DNA from: a virus
Taxonomy: Duplodnaviria; Heunggongvirae; Uroviricota; Caudoviricetes
Virus record (IMG/VR): IMGVR_UViG_2541047877_000008
Length of the DNA: 40,927 nucleotides
Reading direction: 5' to 3' (one strand)
A program made the position numbers and the translations under genes. The notes beneath the pieces are model-generated. The model saw only the letters and a program-made list of their open reading frames with translations, searched no databases and had not been told where the DNA came from. Below are positions 1,150 through 35,130 of the stretch, one piece after another (the first letter of the stretch is position 1; every line of letters starts with the position of its first letter).

Positions 1150-1862
1150 GCCTATAAGGCTCTCTTACCAGCCGCGCCCTAACAGGCGCACACGATCTGA
1201 CATTTGCATCCAACTTCGTTACTTACGGCCCGTAAACGGGCTGCCCGGATAGGGAATCGATAACTGCTCTCCCATTTTATCCTCTTCAAGCTGGTGCTTT
1301 ATGTAATCCTGTATCTTCGCCGTGTTCTTACCCACTGTATCGACGTAGTACCCTCTGCACCAGAACTCCCTGTTCCTGTATTTGAATTTCAAATCACCAA
1401 ACTGCTCGTAAAGCATCAGACTGCTTTTCCCTTTCAGATATCCCATAAACCCGGATACGCTCATTTTAGGCGGGATCTCCACAAGCATATGGATATGATC
1501 TGCACAGCATTCAGCTTCCAGAATCCGTACGCTTTTCCACTCACACAGCTTTCTCAAAATACTGCCTATTGCTCTACGCTTCTCTCTGTAGAACACCTGT
1601 CTTCGGTATTTTGGCGCAAAAACTATGTGATATTTACAGTTCCATCGGGTGTGCGCTAAGCTCTTTTCGTTCCCCATTGGGACCCCCTTTTGATTTCTTG
1701 TTTGACACTTGCAGTTGCCAGACCGCAAGGTGTTTTAACAAATCAAAAGGGGTTTTAATAACTGGCTCAAAGCTGAAAGCTTTCCGGAACCCCCAGCCTA
1801 GCTGGGGGTTTTCTGTGCACAAAAAACCCTCTGTAGTAACAGAGGGTTTTGTTCATTCATAG
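1150..1862 (-). mobile_element. IS200-like insertion sequence (IS200/IS605 family); boundaries approximate
   Basis: Contains the Y1 transposase gene 1219-1677 and, upstream of it, two perfect stem-loops (1790-1808 CCCCAGC-CTA-GCTGGGG; 1823-1850 AAAACCCTCTGT-AGTA-ACAGAGGGTTTT) typical of the structured IS200 left end; expected size about 0.7 kb. Ends not determined precisely. Confidence 0.55.
1219..1677 (-). CDS. tnpA: IS200/IS605-family transposase TnpA (HUH Y1 transposase)
   Basis: Track ORF 1219-1728; start moved to internal ATG at 1675-1677 (MGNEKSLAHTRWNCKYHIVFAPKYRRQ..., 152 aa) with strong SD AAGGGGG upstream; sequence pattern HxH...Y characteristic of IS200 TnpA. Confidence 0.85.
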   Translation of the reverse strand: MGNEKSLAHTRWNCKYHIVFAPKYRRQVFYREKRRAIGSILRKLCEWKSVRILEAECCADHIHMLVEIPPKMSVSGFMGYLKGKSSLMLYEQFGDLKFKYRNREFWCRGYYVDTVGKNTAKIQDYIKHQLEEDKMGEQLSIPYPGSPFTGRK

Positions 1863-4296: not shown

Positions 4297-6482
4297 GAAA
4301 CTTCCCCATTGGTTGAAAATATGGCTCCTCCAACGCCAAGTGTATTTCGTGTTGTGCTCAACCTCAGAGGGCTGGAGTCAGAATTAGAATATCCTGTAGC
4401 AGAAATAAAAGATCCTCCACTAATAGTCAACTGCGGAACATCGGCTATATCTGAATAAGTTCTGTCAGCAACAGTATTATTTATAGCCACATATGATCCA
4501 AAAAAACTTCTTATTGTTTGGTTTTTAACTTTACTTCCTTCAATGGTTATCCTACTACCACAGTCGGCAATAAATCCTGAATCTGCATCCAGCGTTGCAT
4601 TCATAAAAGAAGCTTCAGATCTCTCTACATCAATCCATCTAATATCTTTTGTGGGATTTGCACCAAATACATGACAAATATTAGAGTTAAACCTTACACC
4701 ATCTTGGAGGTGCATTAATTTTTTTATATCTGTACCCCATAGCCTTGGAAAATTAACAGATGCTCCTGCATGGCAATCAAATCCCAGCTCAGCCCCTGAG
4801 ATATCTACAGCCTTTCCTGAAATAACAGCACCAGTGTCTGCATTAACGGCTGTTCCACAATTGCGCATATCATTACCAGCAACATCAACGCAACCCGCAC
4901 CATCAATACGCACACCAAGTGCACATCCATAAAAACCTTTTTCAATATTTGGTTCAAGGACTTTACCACTTGTTTCTGCATCACTTTCTTCAACGTCATG
5001 TCGTCTTGCATCAACATATGCTGTATGAATGCAGGTTAATCCACGATATGAGCAATGTATAGTTTTATGGTCGCGTATATTAACATTTGAACCATCTCTT
5101 ACATTCCATCCTATATAACAATAGCTTGCACTTGACCCCTGAAAATCTGCTTTAACATTATAAATACAATTAACTGACGCAACCGTACTCTCTGTGCACC
5201 GTTCAAACTTGCTTACAGGCATTGATGCCTTGACATTATTTACCAGTTGCAGGGAAGAGTATCTGCTATAAGAAAAATCACATACGTAATACCCTTCTGG
5301 CATATATGCAGCAACACTTTCCTCATCAGGAGCACATCCGGTATGATATGCACTAATTTTTGCACCAAAACTACCATGAATTCCAACGTAGAACTTTCGA
5401 GCACCTGAATACGGATAGAAATTAAGTTCAGCTTTTTGAGTTACAATAAATGCACAAACATCGCTATCATCTCTATTTTCTTCGATCTGAATAGCAAATA
5501 CAGGACTTTTTGCTGCATCGCAAATGTAAAATAAATACTTGTATTCGTAATACGTTCTAACGATTTTAGTAAACAAACGAGTGTCAGAGAAAACCACTGA
5601 GTCTTCTGATGTTATTTTAATCCAAGACAAATCAACACCTGAACTGAATTCAATTTGATAGTTGATAATATGCCCGGTCTTAATTCTTATTTCGCAGAAA
5701 GCATTACCACCATCCCACATAGGTCTCATTGACTGGGCTGCAATGATTGCATCTTTGAGTGTAGGGTAATCACCCCATTCGCCAACAGTAATAACAAAAG
5801 TATAATATGAGTTAAAAACAGCGGCATTTTTGCCTTTGGATATCAACTCCTTAATCATAAAAATATTATCTTCGTAATCACAAGGAGAAATTATATCCCT
5901 CATTTTGCTTTGAAATGTTCGTTGTCTTGCCCCGCTTCCTGACGGTATAAACCAACCAAAACCACCAACAACCCCGGCGATTGCAGCATCGACATAATTA
6001 CGCATTGAGCGATTATTTACAGCGTCCTGCTCAAATGATGGATCTGCAAGGTTAGAAATTTTGTTTTGCTTTGCATCGTAATATTTTGCAAGCAAAGATG
6101 GTTTCATCAATGCACGTCTGAACCACCCAAAACATCGCTGGATCAGCATCGTCAGGTAGTCAAATGCATCTTCATGAACTTCGGGGAAAAATTTTCCCTG
6201 ATTGCGAAGATCAGTCTCCTGCACCACATCAAGCACACGCTCTATCGTAATTCGCCAGCCAGCAGCAAGCGGCGACGGGAGAACCACTTCACCGCCACTA
6301 TAAGTGCCCGCTCCAGTTACCTTATAACCGGTATCCAGAACCAATTCTGTTACGTTCCCGTTCAGGTCAGACACCTGAACAACCAGGTCGGTTTTTTTGA
6401 AAATACGGAAGGTATACGGAAATGATGTCGTAACGCCGTTACCGGTGTATTCGTTGTGGTCAACTTCGGTTGAGACCGTCAT
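4293..6482 (-). CDS. Tailspike / receptor-binding protein with T7 gp17-like N-terminal attachment domain
   Basis: ORF track 729 aa; N-terminal about 170 aa (NEYTGNGVTTSFPYTFRIFKKTDLVVQV...) resembles the particle-binding domain of T7-type tail fibers; remainder is Ser/Asn/Gly-rich and encoded by markedly AT-rich DNA (about 4300-5950). Confidence 0.75.
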   Translation of the reverse strand: MTVSTEVDHNEYTGNGVTTSFPYTFRIFKKTDLVVQVSDLNGNVTELVLDTGYKVTGAGTYSGGEVVLPSPLAAGWRITIERVLDVVQETDLRNQGKFFPEVHEDAFDYLTMLIQRCFGWFRRALMKPSLLAKYYDAKQNKISNLADPSFEQDAVNNRSMRNYVDAAIAGVVGGFGWFIPSGSGARQRTFQSKMRDIISPCDYEDNIFMIKELISKGKNAAVFNSYYTFVITVGEWGDYPTLKDAIIAAQSMRPMWDGGNAFCEIRIKTGHIINYQIEFSSGVDLSWIKITSEDSVVFSDTRLFTKIVRTYYEYKYLFYICDAAKSPVFAIQIEENRDDSDVCAFIVTQKAELNFYPYSGARKFYVGIHGSFGAKISAYHTGCAPDEESVAAYMPEGYYVCDFSYSRYSSLQLVNNVKASMPVSKFERCTESTVASVNCIYNVKADFQGSSASYCYIGWNVRDGSNVNIRDHKTIHCSYRGLTCIHTAYVDARRHDVEESDAETSGKVLEPNIEKGFYGCALGVRIDGAGCVDVAGNDMRNCGTAVNADTGAVISGKAVDISGAELGFDCHAGASVNFPRLWGTDIKKLMHLQDGVRFNSNICHVFGANPTKDIRWIDVERSEASFMNATLDADSGFIADCGSRITIEGSKVKNQTIRSFFGSYVAINNTVADRTYSDIADVPQLTISGGSFISATGYSNSDSSPLRLSTTRNTLGVGGAIFSTNGEVS

Positions 6483-6938: not shown

Positions 6939-6982
6939 TTGCAATTGCCAAGTGGAGTGCTTATATTTACCTTTGCGGTAAA
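6939..6982 (+). promoter_or_regulatory. Sigma70-like promoter (TTGCAA-17-TATATT) overlapped by operator-like palindrome TTTACC-TTTGC-GGTAAA
   Basis: -35 TTGCAA 6939-6944, 17-bp spacer, -10 TATATT 6962-6967; palindrome 6966-6982 overlaps the -10 element and predicted start site. Confidence 0.5.
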
Positions 6983-7016: not shown

Positions 7017-7038
7017 GGCACTGGCAAAATCCAGTGCC
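7017..7038 (+). other. Stable stem-loop in the ant leader (8-bp stem GGCACTGG / CCAGTGCC, loop CAAAAT)
   Basis: Perfect inverted repeat read from sequence. Confidence 0.5.
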
Positions 7039-7075
7039 GGGATTGGCGTCCCGAGTTACTACAGAGGCACATATG

Positions 7076-7095
7076 CCGCATAAGCGGTTTTTTTT
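7076..7095 (+). terminator. Rho-independent terminator / attenuator upstream of the antirepressor gene
   Basis: CCGC-ATAA-GCGG hairpin followed by eight T (7088-7095), about 100 nt downstream of the 6939 promoter and 150 nt upstream of the ant start. Confidence 0.6.
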
Positions 7096-7248
7096 ATGTG
7101 TAAAGCGCACCTATTCTATGGTGGGCTGTGTGGGGGCACCGAAAGGTGCGCCGGGTCCTTTGTAGCCGGTTACGCCAACCCTGCACAGTTCACCACCAAC
7201 CGATTGGCGTCGGTAGTGGTGATTAACCTAACTACAAAGGTGATCACT

Positions 7249-7977: not shown

Positions 7978-8021
7978 TTGCAGACTGGGGGTGAATAGCG
8001 TACTATTACCTTAAAGGTAAA
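7978..8021 (+). promoter_or_regulatory. Promoter (TTGCAG-17-TACTAT) overlapped by operator-like palindrome ATTACC-TTAAA-GGTAAA
   Basis: -35 7978-7983, -10 8001-8006, palindrome 8005-8021; about 25 bp upstream of the strong RBS GAGGAGGAG of the 8047 gene. Confidence 0.5.
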
Positions 8022-8046
8022 CCATGTGTTTACATGAGGAGGAGAT

Positions 8047-8256
8047 ATGGGATTTTGGTTCGCTCGTACAAAAACGAGGGATAATGCACCCAGCCCTCAG
8101 GCAAAAAATGCAGAAGTTCCGGCGTCAGCGCAGGTTAACAAGCGTGGTGGTGTGTATATCTCATCACAGCAAATTTCTGAGCTTCCTGAGGTTAAGGAGA
8201 TGCGTCGTCTCGCTGCTGCAATCGTTAAACAGGATCTTGCCACTGTAAGGAAATAG
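8047..8256 (+). CDS. Small hypothetical protein, first gene of the accessory cassette
   Basis: ORF track 69 aa; strong SD GAGGAGGAG 8036-8044; stop overlaps the GTG start of the next gene (TAGTG). Confidence 0.5.
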   Translation: MGFWFARTKTRDNAPSPQAKNAEVPASAQVNKRGGVYISSQQISELPEVKEMRRLAAAIVKQDLATVRK

Positions 8257-9119
8257 TGTTGTTAGCTCTTCTAATTATCCCCATTCTGGTTAGTGGTTAT
8301 ATTATGATAACCGCTAACCAGTATCATTATTTCCGTTTATACCGACATGAAGGCCAGCTTCTTTATATGAAAGTTGCTGCATTAGGTACATATTGCCTTG
8401 TTGCTTCGGTAATAATTGCCGCATTTATAAAATATAAATATCCTGATTTTCACCTAGTTCACGATATGGTGGAAACTTTTAATGTAACGTCAAAACCAGA
8501 AACAGATAGAATTTACATGTGGCTACTTCTTCTGTCAGTCACATCAATTTGCTTCTCTTTGTGTTATGTATCTTTTGTTTGGCTAAAAGATCTTCTTTTA
8601 GGTTGTTTTTATAAACGTGATATTTATGACAAAATATCAGAGGCAATGAAAGCTAGGGTATTGCGAAAAACGTACTCCCAGGGTTCTTTAGATTTGCTAT
8701 TGCTTGATGCAATCGAATCAGATCCTAAGAAACCAATGTTAATTACTTTATCATCAAATAAAGTATACGTTGGAATAATAAATGGTTCTGGTGAGCCAAC
8801 GGAAAATCAAGGGCCACACCAACACATATCTTTTGTTCCTTTAATGTCAGGGTACAGAAACAAAGAAAATTTATCTGTTACATTTACAAACGCTTACCCA
8901 GGTGAAATCCAAATTAAGCGCAGTGCTGCGATAAAAGGGATAAGCAAAAAGAAAGTTCAAGGTCTAGAAATTATGGTATCTATAGACGAAATAAGTCATA
9001 TATCATGGTTTGACTTTGAAGTATATAAGGCAACAAATAACAAAGTAGAAACAAAGGGTCATGTTGTTAATGTGACCAAAAATGGTCGCAACATATACTA
9101 CAGAAGTGGCAGAAAATAA
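8256..9119 (+). CDS. Membrane protein (about 3 N-terminal TM helices plus about 175-aa soluble domain), AT-rich cargo gene; candidate superinfection-exclusion/defence component
   Basis: ORF track 287 aa, GTG start coupled to upstream stop; hydrophobic segments in first about 110 aa; DNA strongly AT-rich relative to neighbours; no motif recognised. Confidence 0.5.
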   Translation: MLLALLIIPILVSGYIMITANQYHYFRLYRHEGQLLYMKVAALGTYCLVASVIIAAFIKYKYPDFHLVHDMVETFNVTSKPETDRIYMWLLLLSVTSICFSLCYVSFVWLKDLLLGCFYKRDIYDKISEAMKARVLRKTYSQGSLDLLLLDAIESDPKKPMLITLSSNKVYVGIINGSGEPTENQGPHQHISFVPLMSGYRNKENLSVTFTNAYPGEIQIKRSAAIKGISKKKVQGLEIMVSIDEISHISWFDFEVYKATNNKVETKGHVVNVTKNGRNIYYRSGRK

Positions 9120-9135
9120 ATTTTACGCAGTTTAG

Positions 9136-9648
9136 GTGGCTTATATGGATAATACTATCTTAGGCGCATTGATAGGTGCAGTTATTGCTATAGTTTCCAC
9201 TTATATAAATGCAGGACAAGGATACAAAAACAGCATAAGATTAGAGCGACAAAAAATATTAAGGGATAAACGCGAGCAATTATTTATAAATTGTATACTT
9301 ACTAAAAAAGTCATAGATTCAAGCACAATTACCATTCTCAATTTCGTAAAAAATGCCAGATACCACTCTGATAGTAAATTTGACGTATCAAGAGCGAATC
9401 CGTTGCAAACGATGGAAATGCTAATAAACATATACCTTCCTGAGTATAAAAAAGACTTACAAGAACTCAATAATGCGTATCAAGAATTTCACAAATACTA
9501 CTCTCAATATACATGTGCACATACCTTCAAAAATATGCCTGATAATGAGAAGTCGAGGTTTATTGAGGAGGCTGATTTTTATGCAAAAAAGATATATGGC
9601 AAACTTAATGATATTAAGGACAAGATATCATTAAACTCAATAGTATAA
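9136..9648 (+). CDS. Membrane-anchored protein (single N-terminal TM, K/E-rich soluble domain), AT-rich cargo gene
   Basis: ORF track 170 aa; N-terminal ILGALIGAVIAIVSTYI hydrophobic helix; AT-rich; 16 nt downstream of previous gene. Confidence 0.5.
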   Translation: MAYMDNTILGALIGAVIAIVSTYINAGQGYKNSIRLERQKILRDKREQLFINCILTKKVIDSSTITILNFVKNARYHSDSKFDVSRANPLQTMEMLINIYLPEYKKDLQELNNAYQEFHKYYSQYTCAHTFKNMPDNEKSRFIEEADFYAKKIYGKLNDIKDKISLNSIV

Positions 9649-25960: not shown

Positions 25961-26167
25961 TTACTGACCAAGCAGCGTTTTACCGCTGGTCTTAGCGGTT
26001 GATGTGTCGCCCTGAGAACCGGTAAGCAGCGTAGAACTACGACCAGCAGCAGCGCGACGGCGACGAGTTTCTTCGTCGCGGGCATCAACAACGGCGGCAT
26101 CCTGCTCCTGTGGTGCTGCCTGAACTTCTGGTGTTGCAGGCACTGATGGTGAGCTACCCATGCACAT
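25961..26167 (-). CDS. Small acidic protein upstream of portal
   Basis: ORF track 68 aa; ATG 26165-26167 with SD GGAG 9 nt upstream. Confidence 0.4.
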   Translation of the reverse strand: MCMGSSPSVPATPEVQAAPQEQDAAVVDARDEETRRRRAAAGRSSTLLTGSQGDTSTAKTSGKTLLGQ

Positions 26168-26235
26168 ATCAATGACTCCGTACGCAATTAAATTATTACC
26201 AATTTAACCACATATGATTTATTTATCGTAGATAG

Positions 26236-26273
26236 TTGACATTTAACGCACAAATTATTACCTTTCAGGTAAC
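26236..26273 (+). promoter_or_regulatory. Promoter-like TTGACA box with operator-like palindrome ATTACC-TTTCA-GGTAAC, upstream of the tRNA unit
   Basis: TTGACA 26236-26241; palindrome 26257-26273 17 bp downstream (putative -10 TACCTT inside the half-site). Confidence 0.45.
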
Positions 26274-26594
26274 CAAAGAGTTCATTCCGGTTACTAACCT
26301 GACTGGCTTGTCGTTAAATTGAACAGGTGGAGTGAGCTTTTATTTTGAGCAGTACGGCGTATGGCACATGCGCCGATAGCGGTCTGGATACGTTTAAGGG
26401 GCACCCTCCCTTGCTCGGGCAAACGAACCAGGTAGCCGGAATGTGCAAGTCGAGCGGTTTTATTCCGCGCACGGGGATTCACCATCCCGGCGATTCGGTG
26501 TGACGCCTCGGAAGAGACGAGGGTACAACGATGAGAGCATTTATGGAGCCGCGACAAAGTGTGGTGCCTTAACAGGCTAAGTGCTCTCAGCGTT

Positions 26595-26671
26595 GTGGCA
26601 TTAGCTCAGTTGGACAGAGCAACCGCCTTCTAAGCGGTTGGTCGCAGGTTCGAATCCTGCATGCCGCGCCA
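26595..26671 (+). tRNA. tRNA-Arg (anticodon TCT, reads AGA)
   Basis: Manually folded cloverleaf: acceptor GTGGCAT/ATGCCGC, D-stem GCTC/GAGC, anticodon stem ACCGC/GCGGT with loop CTTCTAA, T-arm GCAGG-TTCGAAT-CCTGC, discriminator G, encoded CCA; 77 nt. Confidence 0.85.
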
Positions 26672-26714
26672 GAATCACGCCTAAGGACCGTGATGCCAGA
26701 AGTTCCAGGGGCTT

Positions 26715-26756
26715 GGCGGTGATGGTTTCCCTTGAAGGACTATCACCGCCCTTTTT
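26715..26756 (+). terminator. Rho-independent terminator downstream of tRNA-Arg
   Basis: 9-bp stem GGCGGTGAT / ATCACCGCC followed by TTTTT (26752-26756). Confidence 0.6.
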
Positions 26757-26834
26757 ACAGCAGGACGCCATTGCGATGACTTCATGCTGTAAACCCGTAC
26801 AGCCACGGAAGGCATAACTCATTGCTTCCAGTTC

Positions 26835-26858
26835 GCCCGGTTCGCCGGGCATTTTTTT
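26835..26858 (+). terminator. Second rho-independent terminator
   Basis: GCCCGG-TTCG-CCGGGC hairpin followed by ATTTTTTT. Confidence 0.6.
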
Positions 26859-26863
26859 GCCTG

Positions 26864-26892
26864 ATGACCACAAATTACCTTAAAGGTATAAT
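26864..26892 (+). promoter_or_regulatory. Promoter (ATGACC-17-TATAAT) overlapped by operator-like palindrome ATTACC-TTAAA-GGTATA
   Basis: -35 26864-26869, perfect -10 TATAAT 26887-26892; palindrome 26874-26890 lies between the -35 and -10 elements. Confidence 0.5.
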
Positions 26893-26893
26893 C

Positions 26894-27742
26894 ATGAAAA
26901 ACTTTAAGGTAATTAGTATGTTCGAATCGTTCAAAGAGCTGTTTTTATCTACTGCCAATACTGCCGTGCATCGAGCTAAAAACCCTGTGCTAGGTGCTTT
27001 TGTTATGTCCTGGTGCGCCTTCAACTGGAAATCACTTCTTTATCTATTTTTTAGCAAATCAAATATAATAGATAAAATTTCATACATCTCAGATAACAGC
27101 ACATGGAAAACTGTTATGTTTTATCCATGCTTATCTGTAATTACTATCTGCTGCCTATTACCATGGGTAAACAATATCATTAACGTATGGCAAGCAAAGC
27201 CTCTTGATAATAATGACTCAATCGAAAATCACCGGAAGGCAAGAAAAATACAACGTGAAACACGGCTACAGAGATTGCTGGCTAAAAAAGACATTACTTA
27301 CGAAAAAGTAAAAACAGGCGCTGAAAAAAACATTCAAGACATGAAAGAGGAAATAATTCTTTCAAAAGACAGAATGGGACAACTCACATCTGAATTGAAA
27401 GAGAGGGAGACAGAACTGCGCGCAGCACAAGCTCGTATTTTAGAATTATCTAAGGTTATTCATGAAACAACATCTAAACTAGAAAATCTAGAAAAAGCCC
27501 ACAAAAATTTAAAAAACGAATATGAGTCCTATAAGAAAAACATTCCTTTGGCAACAAATAATACAATTGCTAATGGGTTTGTAGGTCTAAAATCATTACA
27601 AGACCTTAATGAGTCCGTAAAGAAACTTGGCGTTACTGGAATTAACAATCCAGAAATCAGTACATTATTGAATAATCCTCTAGTAAATATAAATGGTGGT
27701 TTAAATTCCACCCATCAAAGAAAATCAAAAACACAAAAGTAA
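26894..27742 (+). CDS. AT-rich membrane-anchored coiled-coil protein (cargo gene; candidate abortive-infection/exclusion protein)
   Basis: Track ORF 26822-27742; start probably ATG 26894 or 26918 (both with AAGG-type SD; 26918 fits the promoter better); two N-terminal hydrophobic helices then long K/E-rich coiled coil; inserted between terminase and portal on the opposite strand. Confidence 0.5.
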   Translation: MKNFKVISMFESFKELFLSTANTAVHRAKNPVLGAFVMSWCAFNWKSLLYLFFSKSNIIDKISYISDNSTWKTVMFYPCLSVITICCLLPWVNNIINVWQAKPLDNNDSIENHRKARKIQRETRLQRLLAKKDITYEKVKTGAEKNIQDMKEEIILSKDRMGQLTSELKERETELRAAQARILELSKVIHETTSKLENLEKAHKNLKNEYESYKKNIPLATNNTIANGFVGLKSLQDLNESVKKLGVTGINNPEISTLLNNPLVNINGGLNSTHQRKSKTQK

Positions 27743-27745
27743 AAA

Positions 27746-29215
27746 TCATTCAAATGGGTCATAGTCTGTTATAGCCCTGCCCTGCTGCTGCCGTGGGTCA
27801 TTAGTTTTCTTGGCTACCGGGAACGCAAACGTCAGCAGTAGCGCATCGCCTTTACCCGGCGAACGCCCAAGCCGCTCCTTGATATCTTCCTTCGGTTCGA
27901 TAACGATTTTACCGTCCACTCGAACTTTGTACTCTGCCGCCGACAGGTCGTCTGCTGTTTCCTGGTCATCCAGCATGCCGCCCAGCCTCAGCCATGTCTT
28001 GCATGAATTGAACATCTCCCCACGCTTGTTGAGCATCTGCGGGTCAGTAGACGCGCCACCGAACGGAACAAGTTGCCATGTACGACCCCATCCGTCACCG
28101 ATTGACTTCAGACCGGTTCCGTAACCGAAGTCGATGAACACCGCGTCAGCCTGATACTGGTCTTCAAAGTCAGCGATACGCTTCGCCATAATCAGATCGT
28201 CGGTAGTCTTGTTGCCAGTCCACAGCACCTTACTGTGTAGCCCCTGCCGCAGGTATATCACCGCGTCATCAACGCCTGAATATGCCGGGTCAACACCGAT
28301 TATCACCGGAGCATGCGCCACCTGCGCAGCGGTTACCACCCGTTTCATTGCCTCATCAGTAAGACCGGTAGGGATAAACTGCAATTCAGATGCATCAGGG
28401 AATATGCCGCGCACACGGATTTTAACGAAGTCGCTGTCTTCCCCGTAGTCATCAACCCATTTCTGCAACTGCTGTTTGTTAGTGCCTTCCACCGTCCGGC
28501 TGTCAATCTGCGCAGTTTTCCAGCGGTGTTTATATTTGCGGAAACATTCGCGGAAACGCCCGGTGTTACGTGTAGGGTTTCCGAATGCCACCCAGATAAT
28601 CTCAGTGTCTTCGTCCGTCAGCGCACCCTCTGCTACCTCCCACACCAGATCGGCAATGTTGGATGCTTCGTCGAATACCACGATGATGCGTTTGCGCTCG
28701 TTGTGTAGTCCGGCGAATGCCTCAGTGTTGTGCTCAGACCAGGGGATTGCGTCAGCTCGCCACCGCTTGTCGTGCCCAGGGTCATTGCTGTACATCGCGG
28801 TAGCGGTACAGGTAAACCAGTCTTTCGTGATAGCAAGGTTCGACCACTTGATAATTTCCGGCCAGGTCTTCGTTCGTAGCTGGTTGTCGGTGTTGGCGGT
28901 CACCACGACCTTACAATCCTCGCAAGTGGACATGCCCCAGTTGATCAGCATTGAGATGAATGCGGATTTACCAATACCGTGACCCGAAGCGCGTGCCAGC
29001 ATAAGCGGCTGATAGCGCGTCTCTGGATTCTGCAGGTGATCACGTATCTCTCGGAACGCATCAGCCTGCCACTGACGTGGACCGGTGGCATGTGCTAATT
29101 CAGTCCCCTCTTCCCCCCACGGGAACGCATAGAGGGCATAGCCAAGCGGATCGTGAGTGAACCCTGCAATATCCTCGATCAACTGCTCTTCAGGAGATAA
29201 CGCTGTATCTGTCAC
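27746..29215 (-). CDS. Terminase large subunit
   Basis: ORF track 489 aa; ATPase/nuclease-type organisation and position adjacent to small-subunit gene; 4-nt overlap with it. Confidence 0.85.
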   Translation of the reverse strand: MTDTALSPEEQLIEDIAGFTHDPLGYALYAFPWGEEGTELAHATGPRQWQADAFREIRDHLQNPETRYQPLMLARASGHGIGKSAFISMLINWGMSTCEDCKVVVTANTDNQLRTKTWPEIIKWSNLAITKDWFTCTATAMYSNDPGHDKRWRADAIPWSEHNTEAFAGLHNERKRIIVVFDEASNIADLVWEVAEGALTDEDTEIIWVAFGNPTRNTGRFRECFRKYKHRWKTAQIDSRTVEGTNKQQLQKWVDDYGEDSDFVKIRVRGIFPDASELQFIPTGLTDEAMKRVVTAAQVAHAPVIIGVDPAYSGVDDAVIYLRQGLHSKVLWTGNKTTDDLIMAKRIADFEDQYQADAVFIDFGYGTGLKSIGDGWGRTWQLVPFGGASTDPQMLNKRGEMFNSCKTWLRLGGMLDDQETADDLSAAEYKVRVDGKIVIEPKEDIKERLGRSPGKGDALLLTFAFPVAKKTNDPRQQQGRAITDYDPFE

Positions 29216-32720: not shown

Positions 32721-32799
32721 TTTACCTCTAAGGTAATTAAAAACCACATAAGACACGAAATCAATAGAGTTTAGAATATTTTGTTACCTGATAGGTAAT
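32721..32799. promoter_or_regulatory. Two operator-like palindromes (TTTACC-TCTAA-GGTAAT at 32721-32737; GTTACC-TGATA-GGTAAT at 32783-32799)
   Basis: Read from sequence; located between the P-like gene terminator and the DUF1064 gene start. Confidence 0.5.
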
Positions 32800-34728: not shown

Positions 34729-34745
34729 ATTACCTTTGAGGTACG
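34729..34745. promoter_or_regulatory. Operator-like palindrome ATTACC-TTTGA-GGTACG
   Basis: Between the cro-side terminator and the cII-position gene. Confidence 0.4.
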
Positions 34746-34799: not shown

Positions 34800-35030
34800 T
34801 CATGAGTAGAAGAAGTATGCCAGTTCTGCTTTTGAGCGCAGCCATTGTCTTGATTTACAGGCTTTAAAAAGCCCATCCATCAATACCTTACCTGGCATTT
34901 TGCGCTTACCTGTTAAGTGAGTCTGGATATAGTGACTCGTCGTTCCGGCTTCCTGTGCGAAGGCTTCACGCTCATCCGGAGTAAGTGCAAGCCAGTGCTT
35001 TTTGAAATCGAAATGTCCGTTATCGCTCAT
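34800..35030 (-). CDS. Cro-like small HTH regulator
   Basis: ORF track 76 aa; divergent from the repressor gene across the operator cluster. Confidence 0.5.
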   Translation of the reverse strand: MSDNGHFDFKKHWLALTPDEREAFAQEAGTTSHYIQTHLTGKRKMPGKVLMDGLFKACKSRQWLRSKAELAYFFYS

Positions 35031-35065: not shown

Positions 35066-35130
35066 TTCACCTATAAGGTAACAAAAATCAAGGATAGTTA
35101 CCCATGAGGTGCATTTACCTGTTGGGTAAT
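35066..35130. promoter_or_regulatory. OR-like operator cluster (three 17-bp sites: 35066-35082, 35097-35113, 35114-35130)
   Basis: TTCACC-TATAA-GGTAAC, GTTACC-CATGA-GGTGCA, TTTACC-TGTTG-GGTAAT; centre spacings 31 and 17 bp; between the cro-like start (35030) and the repressor start (35185). Confidence 0.6.

Follow-up and report, generated by a model that had tools for sequence, protein, structure and literature searches.

A predicted early transcription module carrying a conserved pseudoknotted RNA within the packaging operon of a phiV10-like prophage

Why should the packaging and head operon of a phage be interrupted by genes read in the opposite direction? The question is raised by the window analysed here, the 40,927-nucleotide virus record IMGVR_UViG_2541047877_000008, in which portal, gp3 and terminase genes on the minus strand flank a plus-strand island with a tRNA gene and an AT-rich open reading frame (ORF). 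The window holds a phiV10-like (Uetakevirus, epsilon15-like) prophage of Escherichia coli, integrated beside guaA, which is the attachment site of phiV10-type phages (PMC9782041), with the integrase gene at the window's end. Positions 26190-27800 recur at 100% identity in E. coli GPEC1186 and at 99% in 17 other complete genomes, where the annotated order is portal, gp3, tRNA-Arg, hypothetical protein, terminase and the integrase adjoins guaA. A preliminary description saw here a cargo insertion of a tRNA plus a gene; all the features it listed are present at or near where it placed them, and the annotation of the flanking genes bears out the interruption. Our reading, to which we give a probability of roughly 0.6, is that Uetakevirus phages have the island from their ancestors, as a module of early transcription that runs antisense within the late operon and comprises two units with sigma-70 promoters overlapped by the immunity operator (Table 1). 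Its tRNA and accessory gene are ordinary; the noteworthy element is a conserved, unannotated, pseudoknotted RNA.

This RNA occupies what had been described as a 320-nt leader. The leader is where it was said to be, but it is no plain leader: it holds a conserved structure that the preliminary description missed, in which a short stretch at the 5′ end is followed by a core of about 170 nt that forms a pseudoknot, and the core by a long hairpin, here called module B. Among 45 non-redundant copies of the core, the alignment consists of invariant blocks with variable stems between them. The core is modelled as five helices: the P1 hairpin, a long-range helix, the UUCACCA hairpin, the CACC/GGUG pseudoknot and the GGAAGAGA hairpin. 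Standard pairs make up 97% of the cells of this model, compared with 28-49% when the partners are slid by 1-3 columns, and compensatory changes are seen in 12 of the 27 base pairs. The score for covariation, 0.256 versus 0.120, was reached in none of 500 shuffles, and one C-G pair of the pseudoknot has become A-U in four sequences. As some conserved pairs are U-G, the structure can form on the transcribed strand only. Across the window stretch 26275-26680 the folding z score is −3.9. In module B the helix is kept through compensatory changes in 26 distinct variants (stems GAGAGCA/UGCUCUC, AAGAGCA/UGCUCUU and GAGCGCA/UGCGCUC; distal pairs UA/UA, GG/CC and AC/GU).

The loop GGCAC of P1 could in addition pair with GUGC of the invariant 19-mer, an interaction on which covariation is uninformative, both partners being invariant. 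A long-range GCACAU/AUGUGC helix that RNAalifold puts in place of the P1 hairpin was set aside, as pair 9-21 switches between G-C and A-U. We also dismissed a resemblance of UGCAAGUCGAGCGG in the window to 16S rRNA (a stretch that we take to lie at about positions 54-68), as most family members read CAAGCCA there. A search of Rfam 15 over the whole window gave nothing in 26272-26594 at the gathering thresholds, and one at E ≤ 10 over 26150-26900 returned, besides the tRNA, chance-level matches only, none of them over the core. We found no description of the core RNA in the literature on put and HK639, the phiV10/epsilon15 tRNA, structured RNAs of prophages or N-less lambdoid phages, which is not proof of novelty.

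BLAST searches with 26272-26594 recovered sequences about 80% identical, mostly in unannotated DNA, in very different phages: P1, P7, D6, SJ46, mEp460, cdtI, 2H10, Ayreon, Shiga toxin (Stx) phages of types Stx2c and Stx2a, Tyrion, PAT1 and Klebsiella phages. The leader RNA is found in 86 phage records, and the invariant 19-mer GGTAGCCGGAATGTGCAAG in at least 120 IMG/VR contigs. About a third of the complete E. coli genomes (1836 of 5426) contain the core, on chromosomes and on plasmids. None of 40 RefSeq records sampled across the ranking has an annotated feature under the core match. Among contigs of species-representative genomes, the 19-mer occurs in 24, of which 22 are from Enterobacteriaceae or Erwiniaceae genera and two from metagenome bins labelled Bacillota/Oscillospiraceae.

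We surveyed the genomic context of 135 copies. Roughly half (67) follow a cI-like repressor gene, of diverse kinds, at a distance of a few hundred bases and on the same strand, 49 are in the slot seen in our Uetakevirus and 12 are in the ban operon of P1, between trnI and ban. The RNA is always oriented like its upstream promoter and adjacent tRNAs, and in mEp460 the core begins about 55 nt past a PL-like promoter. A same-strand tRNA is present within 1.5 kb in 48 cases and absent from that distance in 87; tRNA-Arg(UCU) lies just 3′ of the RNA in 31 copies, and a tRNA with a CAU anticodon (annotated as tRNA-Ile2 in P1) just 5′ of it in 17. The window has one copy, as judged by covariance model R1.

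In a Salmonella prophage (L166), the order is operator-promoter, RNA, terminator and then the cargo's own promoter; there is no tRNA, and the RNA unit has no plus-strand ORF longer than 37 amino acids. The operator-promoter there drives the RNA alone, which argues for a dedicated RNA gene. Citrobacter L168 and Cronobacter L169 likewise have the RNA without a tRNA, with the same terminator and cargo promoter. P1 has the core without the module B hairpin, and the lambdoid phage LLS (L165, PQ299149; minus strand, about 12150-12060) has module B, ending in GUUGUGGU, in its PL leader with the core absent, so the two RNA domains are separable modules. Epsilon15, whose sequence comes from an isolated phage, keeps the promoter, the operator and the P1 hairpin; a deletion took the rest of the core, the tRNA and the first terminator. 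The epsilon15 record (L006) annotates ‘RNaseIII’, ‘IHF’ and ‘repressor’ sites in the spacer at about 2548-2640. In two Cronobacter prophages the full copy of the RNA is preceded, at about 90 nt, by an extra partial one (L169 6373-6425, L170 3455-3507; 31 bits over model positions 102-154).

The preliminary description had noted two promoters, each with its operator, and both the motif statistics and the coordinates agree with it. Over the whole window, the palindrome TACCT-N3-AGGTA with at most one mismatch has 13 sites against 0.62 expected, a count matched in none of 100 shuffles; with at most two mismatches there are 29 sites against 9.4 expected. Three sites lie between a cro-like gene (34800-35030, minus strand) and the repressor gene, one of them inside the predicted PR, and two bracket the predicted PL. 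Because of this excess and the overlap with PR and PL, the palindrome is, as far as sequence can tell, the operator of the prophage immunity repressor. A host factor as its ligand was rejected for Uetakeviruses, since the sites cluster at PR and PL. The epsilon15 site homologous to the first island operator (O1) is annotated ‘repressor, lysogeny’, both island operators are kept in prophages of E. coli, Salmonella, Citrobacter and Cronobacter, and the phiV10-type repressor has been shown to block lytic genes (PMC9782041). With an immunity operator at both promoters, the two units should be silent in the lysogen and fire early in lytic growth, upon infection or induction.

Conservation of the slot indicates how old this arrangement is. 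Positions 26190-26858 are 98-99% identical in phiV10, TL-2011b, ZX5, typing phages 9 and 10 and others, which argues against the insertion of a tRNA together with a gene; homology with phiV10 stops exactly past the U-tract of the second terminator (T2), at 26858. The layout of promoter/operator, leader and terminator is common to Uetakeviruses of E. coli, Salmonella, Citrobacter, Cronobacter, Klebsiella and Enterobacter, and the TTGACA-17-operator arrangement of promoter 1 recurs in epsilon15 and the Salmonella prophage L166. The RNA occupies the same slot in Tyrion, PAT1, a Klebsiella phage, L136 and L166-L170, and the first terminator (T1) is kept in phiV10, the Klebsiella phage and L136. 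Behind the terminators the occupant changes. The usual resident in E. coli, Salmonella, Citrobacter and Cronobacter is a gene of the phrog_4780 family, with alleles at 45-60% identity, each allele examined being preceded by the promoter 2/operator combination; phiV10 and epsilon15 carry a Phage_gp49_66 gene, of normal GC content in phiV10, and a Klebsiella phage holds yet another gene. In one Klebsiella prophage (L139) the cassette has moved to a different type of phage, together with remnants of T1 and T2 and an operator. Judged from these comparisons, only the last gene of the island varies, and the promoter-RNA-terminator part is ancestral, not a recent insertion.

Table 1. Positions of the island's features and of the immunity region in the window
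Feature	Position	Strand	Details
Unit 1	26236 to ~26858	+	Non-coding RNA operon: RNA of ~320 nt, tRNA-Arg(UCU) abutting it without a gap, two tandem terminators
Promoter 1	26236-26264	+	−35 TTGACA 26236-26241, 17-nt spacer, −10 TACCTT 26259-26264; read from the sequence
Operator O1	26258-26272		TTACCTTTCAGGTAA; overlaps −10 of promoter 1; perfect motif copy 26259-26271
Conserved structured RNA core	26352-26525	+	Covariance model R1, 136 bits, E 8e-41
P1 hairpin of core	26355-26375	+	Loop GGCAC
Invariant 19-mer of core	26431-26449	+	GGTAGCCGGAATGTGCAAG
Core hairpin	26474-26488	+	Loop UUCACCA; loop CACC 26480-26483 pairs with GGUG 26497-26500 (pseudoknot)
Core 3′ hairpin	26506-26522	+	Loop GGAAGAGA
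Module B long hairpin	26526-26595	+	CAACGAUGAGAGCAUUUA pairs with UAAGUGCUCUCAGCGUUG; last base is nucleotide 1 of the tRNA
tRNA-Arg, anticodon UCU	26595-26671	+	ARAGORN tRNA-Arg(TCT); Rfam RF00005, 69.4 bits versus gathering score 29
Terminator T1	26715-26756	+	14-bp stem 26715-26750, then CTTTTT; terminator scan
Terminator T2	26835-26858	+	GCCCGG-TTCG-CCGGGC (26835-26850), then ATTTTTTT; terminator scan
Unit 2	26864-27742	+	Swappable cassette: own operator-overlapped promoter, short leader, phrog_4780 gene
Promoter 2	26864-26892	+	ATGACC-17-TATAAT; called by promoter scan
Operator O2	26876-26888		TACCTTAAAGGTA; perfect motif copy between −35 and −10 of promoter 2
Accessory gene, phrog_4780 family	26918-27742	+	274 amino acids; RefSeq start 26894; start from alignment of homologues
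Operator cluster, PR side	35068-35128		Predicted PR 35084-35056 on minus strand
Prophage repressor gene	35185-35769	+	HTH_3, Pfam E 1.2e-9; putative trans-acting factor for O1 and O2
Operator cluster, PL side	35828-35902		Predicted PL TTGACA-17-AATTAT 35861-35889

We hypothesize that the module works as follows. Once the repressor is gone, through infection or induction, promoter 1 would fire, and a cut by RNase P between 26594 and 26595 would part the structured RNA from the tRNA. The tRNA would then add to the cell's small supply of AGA-decoding tRNA, to the benefit of AGA-rich phage genes, and the structured RNA would itself be a product, most likely a stable accessory RNA that, early in lytic growth, binds a conserved component of the host. 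For the RNA as such, we put the odds that it is itself the product at about even; a cis-acting role in elongation or antitermination seems unlikely, and a riboswitch or some other role makes up the remainder. A broader and more tentative proposal, which we hold at somewhat short of even odds, is that the core (26352-26525) represents a new class of phage functional RNA, a portable ‘RNA moron’ of temperate phages of Enterobacterales (P1, lambdoid/Stx phages and Uetakeviruses). It would be switched on once repression lifts, would use its invariant single-stranded segments to capture some conserved machinery of the host, such as RNA polymerase, a factor linked to tRNA or translation, or a defence that senses RNA, and would be made with rare-codon tRNAs via the tRNA-processing pathway.

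Several observations weigh against the module as we describe it. In lambdoid phages and P1 the core comes without its own terminator and lies in a 5′ leader or 95 nt before ban, a placement that suits a role in cis equally well. The ribosome-binding site of the downstream gene in phiV10 and epsilon15 begins directly past the U-tract of T2, so expression of that gene needs read-through of the terminators, which favours antitermination. The −10 hexamer of promoter 1 is weak and falls below calling by the promoter scan, and lysogenic repression, the ends of the transcripts and processing by RNase P are each inferred. In Klebsiella prophage L139 the operator TACCTCAAAGGTA is kept beside the cassette (5958-5970), the resident repressor is unrelated and the 12.7 kb examined contain no further copy; the site therefore cannot serve that repressor and is an orphan. 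Finally, the structure model of the accessory protein is poor (predicted template-modelling score (pTM) 0.25), and the protein lacks an informative homologue.

The first alternative takes the leader as a cis-acting elongation or antitermination element, like the put RNA of HK022 or an rrn/nut leader, that stays with its own transcribing polymerase and carries it through T1 and T2 or through the terminators and Rho sites of the lambdoid PL and P1 ban operons. It accounts for the RNA always being in sense orientation downstream of a repressor-controlled early promoter, with 67 of the 135 copies at the nutL/N or putL position, and for strict terminators being four times denser in the 900 nt downstream of the RNA (0.60 versus 0.15 per kb); it also suits phiV10 and epsilon15, which have no room for a promoter between T2 and the next gene. 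However, the RNA is single-copy in each phage, with none in the PR operon. In the window, as in the relatives from Salmonella, Citrobacter and Cronobacter, terminators close the unit and a separate promoter serves the next gene; read-through of T1 and T2 would also collide with the convergent late operon. Model R1 at E ≤ 10 found no match in the HK022 putL segment, nor anywhere in HK639, where a putL-like RNA is annotated; BLAST located HK022 putL through that HK639 feature, and putL is unrelated to the RNA described here.

Phage LLS bears on this alternative from both sides. It has no homologue of N, its authors suggested RNA-mediated antitermination (PMC12315714), and it shares early-left genes of the yfdP/yfdQ families with carriers of the RNA such as mEp460. 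Yet LLS lacks the core, which for that reason cannot be the antiterminator that N-less lambdoid phages use in general; epsilon15 has lost most of it as well. The same holds for a likeness to boxA. The 3′ strand of module B (26578-26601) has the sequence UGCUCUC in the window, and UGCUCUUU or UGCGCUUC in relatives, with GUUGUGG after it; it resembles boxA and boxC of rrn and lambda. A boxA (consensus GCUCUUUA) is single-stranded beside a boxB hairpin; some variants have the boxA-like UGCUCUUU, but the stretch is variable in sequence and paired in a covarying helix. We regard the production of a free RNA as the better account of the leader.

The island as recent cargo, with a tRNA that serves AT-rich cargo and a membrane protein that acts as an abortive-infection or exclusion factor expressed from the prophage, is less probable again. 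Its appeal lies in the accessory gene, which has its own promoter, a GC content of 0.34 (0.31-0.36 along the ORF versus about 0.52 in the flanks), 4 AGA and 5 AUA codons among 274, a hypervariable C terminus of the sort common in genes under conflict, and alternative genes in its slot in different phages. Against it, the tRNA unit is ancestral and stands beside a different, GC-normal gene in phiV10, relatives carry the phrog_4780 gene without a tRNA, and phrog_4780 is an old resident of the slot across genera; the slot, the operators and the RNA are found in Uetakeviruses of five other genera.

The tRNA itself is real, ARAGORN and Rfam agreeing on it, and it is the single tRNA that ARAGORN found. 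It has a 7-bp acceptor stem, A20, C35, the discriminator G73 and an encoded CCA; A20 and C35 are identity elements of arginyl-tRNA synthetase and place it among the arginine isoacceptors with anticodon UCU. As had been noted, it is internal to the prophage and away from the integration site, which is at guaA with the integrase at the window's end. In the phage ORFs, 8.4 of every 1000 codons are AGA, a frequency about four times the average in E. coli, which makes a supply role reasonable. AGA is concentrated in the tailspike (13 codons), ejection proteins and early genes and is absent from the head genes; the accessory ORF has 4 in its 274 codons. Of the earlier proposal that the tRNA supports translation of the cargo, the supply of AGA decoding is plausible; the tie to the cargo gene is not upheld.

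The cargo gene was described as an AT-rich ORF for a membrane and coiled-coil protein, which holds, starting at 26894, which probably does not. That ATG begins 1 nt past the −10 hexamer of promoter 2, and the start codons of all 34 aligned homologues fall at the position of 26918, where the ATG is thus most likely the true start. The product matches the phrog_4780 profile (E 7.5e-122; residues 9-281 of the RefSeq call against 1-268 of 275 profile positions). Its N-terminal 160 amino acids are conserved and include two hydrophobic helices, the C-terminal coiled coil is hypervariable, and an AlphaFold2 model is all-helical with a predicted local distance difference test score of 67. Beyond phrog_4780, profile searches of Pfam, NCBIfam and the PDB gave coiled-coil noise only, and the best PADLOC-DB matches, LmuB (7.6e-5), DruC and JetC, all fall on the coiled coil (residues ~105-245). 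The immunity operator on its promoter predicts silence in the lysogen, and no defence family matches; both speak against a factor expressed from the prophage. The variable C terminus suggests a changing partner, and early superinfection exclusion or host take-over are candidate roles. No terminator follows the ORF, whose stop lies 3 nt from that of the convergent terminase gene.

That the conserved leader is no RNA at all, being instead a small protein-coding gene or a DNA site (a binding array, an origin or pac), can be set aside as highly improbable: the leader does sit in regulatory regions, and short ORFs are annotated over or near it in the mEp460, Ayreon, Tyrion and phiV10 records, but these disagree in strand and frame, substitutions are compensatory across helices and not at third codon positions, variable segments have indels of 1-30 nt whose lengths need not be divisible by three, conserved U-G pairs imply a strand-specific structure, and the orientation always matches the upstream promoter and adjacent tRNAs.

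The same operator marks other parts of the window. A perfect copy at 8007-8019, TACCTTAAAGGTA, identical to the one in promoter 2, lies just upstream of three ORFs at 8024-8248, 8256-9119 (GC 0.34) and 9136-9648 (GC 0.32), the last two with 13 AUA codons each; the stretch 8007-9648 looks like a second AT-rich accessory island, presumably under the same repressor. Three further perfect operators are in intergenic spots of the replication and early-right region: two (32723-32797) between DUF1064-like and P-like genes and one (34731-34743) between the cro-like gene and the next; relatives have equivalent sites. Rfam matches elsewhere in the window are STnc490 (1687-1810, minus strand), isrK (7018-7094, plus strand) and C4 antisense RNA (7114-7200, plus strand). 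The last two are upstream of a BRO-N antirepressor gene, with an operator-like site at 6968, in an arrangement that resembles the immI operon of P1.

If the predictions hold, the core RNA belongs to the very start of lytic development in three phage architectures that are unrelated to one another. Should it act on the host, it would be a new early take-over or anti-defence RNA; should it act in cis, it would bear on early transcription control in N-less lambdoid phages, the question posed for LLS (PMC12315714). It has gone unannotated in textbook phages, among them P1 (in the ban operon), Stx-converting phages and phiV10. The analysis also defines an immunity regulon for Uetakeviruses, with operator TACCT-N3-AGGTA and sites that include those before accessory islands, and moves the start codon assigned to a widespread family of phage genes. 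The RNA is physically linked to tRNAs that read AGA and AUA, the rarest codons of E. coli.

Other phage RNAs are associated with tRNAs. The tRNA cluster of T4 yields small RNAs (species 1 and 2, ‘band C/D’), structured phage RNAs of unknown function that are co-transcribed with tRNAs and presumably freed by tRNA-processing enzymes; T4 is virulent and its cluster has eight tRNAs. Their likeness to the core RNA is by description only: the core is under the repressor of a temperate phage, is common to unrelated phage types and in 87 of 135 copies has no tRNA within 1.5 kb. GOLLD and ROOL, both Rfam families, are structured phage and prophage RNAs, often beside tRNA genes, but are about 580-800 nt long and typical of other bacterial groups, whereas the RNA described here measures 170-320 nt, has no Rfam match (E ≤ 10) and has its 19-mer almost only in Enterobacterales. 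A cryo-EM preprint deals with these large ornate RNAs, GOLLD and ROOL (10.1101/2024.12.08.627333).

The island also invites comparison with the morons of lambdoid phages and with the tRNA genes of Stx phages, ileZ-argN-argO, which lie in the late PR′ region. Common to all are accessory genes, rare-codon tRNAs and cargo with its own promoter and a GC content below that of its neighbours. The accessory gene resembles a moron in having its own promoter, a GC content of 0.34 and a variable slot between conserved genes. A prophage expresses its classical morons; in the island the immunity operator is present at both promoters, and the sequence of the accessory unit predicts the opposite, early expression.

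The put RNA of HK022 is about 70 nt long with two stem-loops (PMC9378689). Like put, the RNA described here is in the leader of a repressor-controlled early operon, just past the early promoter and upstream of terminators; unlike put, it has a core of about 170 nt with a pseudoknot, occurs once per genome and, in Uetakeviruses, belongs to a unit that ends at terminators. In mEp460 it takes the N/nutL position, and the early-left genes there match those of the N-less LLS. A further parallel to the island's make-up is the ban operon of P1 (C1-controlled Op72: dicF-like region, trnA, trnT, tciABC, trnI, ban), which holds the core at about 80% identity, unannotated in the P1 record (NC_005856 71023-71191), directly past trnI and 95 nt before ban. 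The P1 core lacks the hairpin of module B, follows a tRNA and lies within a long protein-coding operon; like the island, that operon is a repressor-controlled early one that mixes tRNAs, a non-coding RNA and accessory genes.

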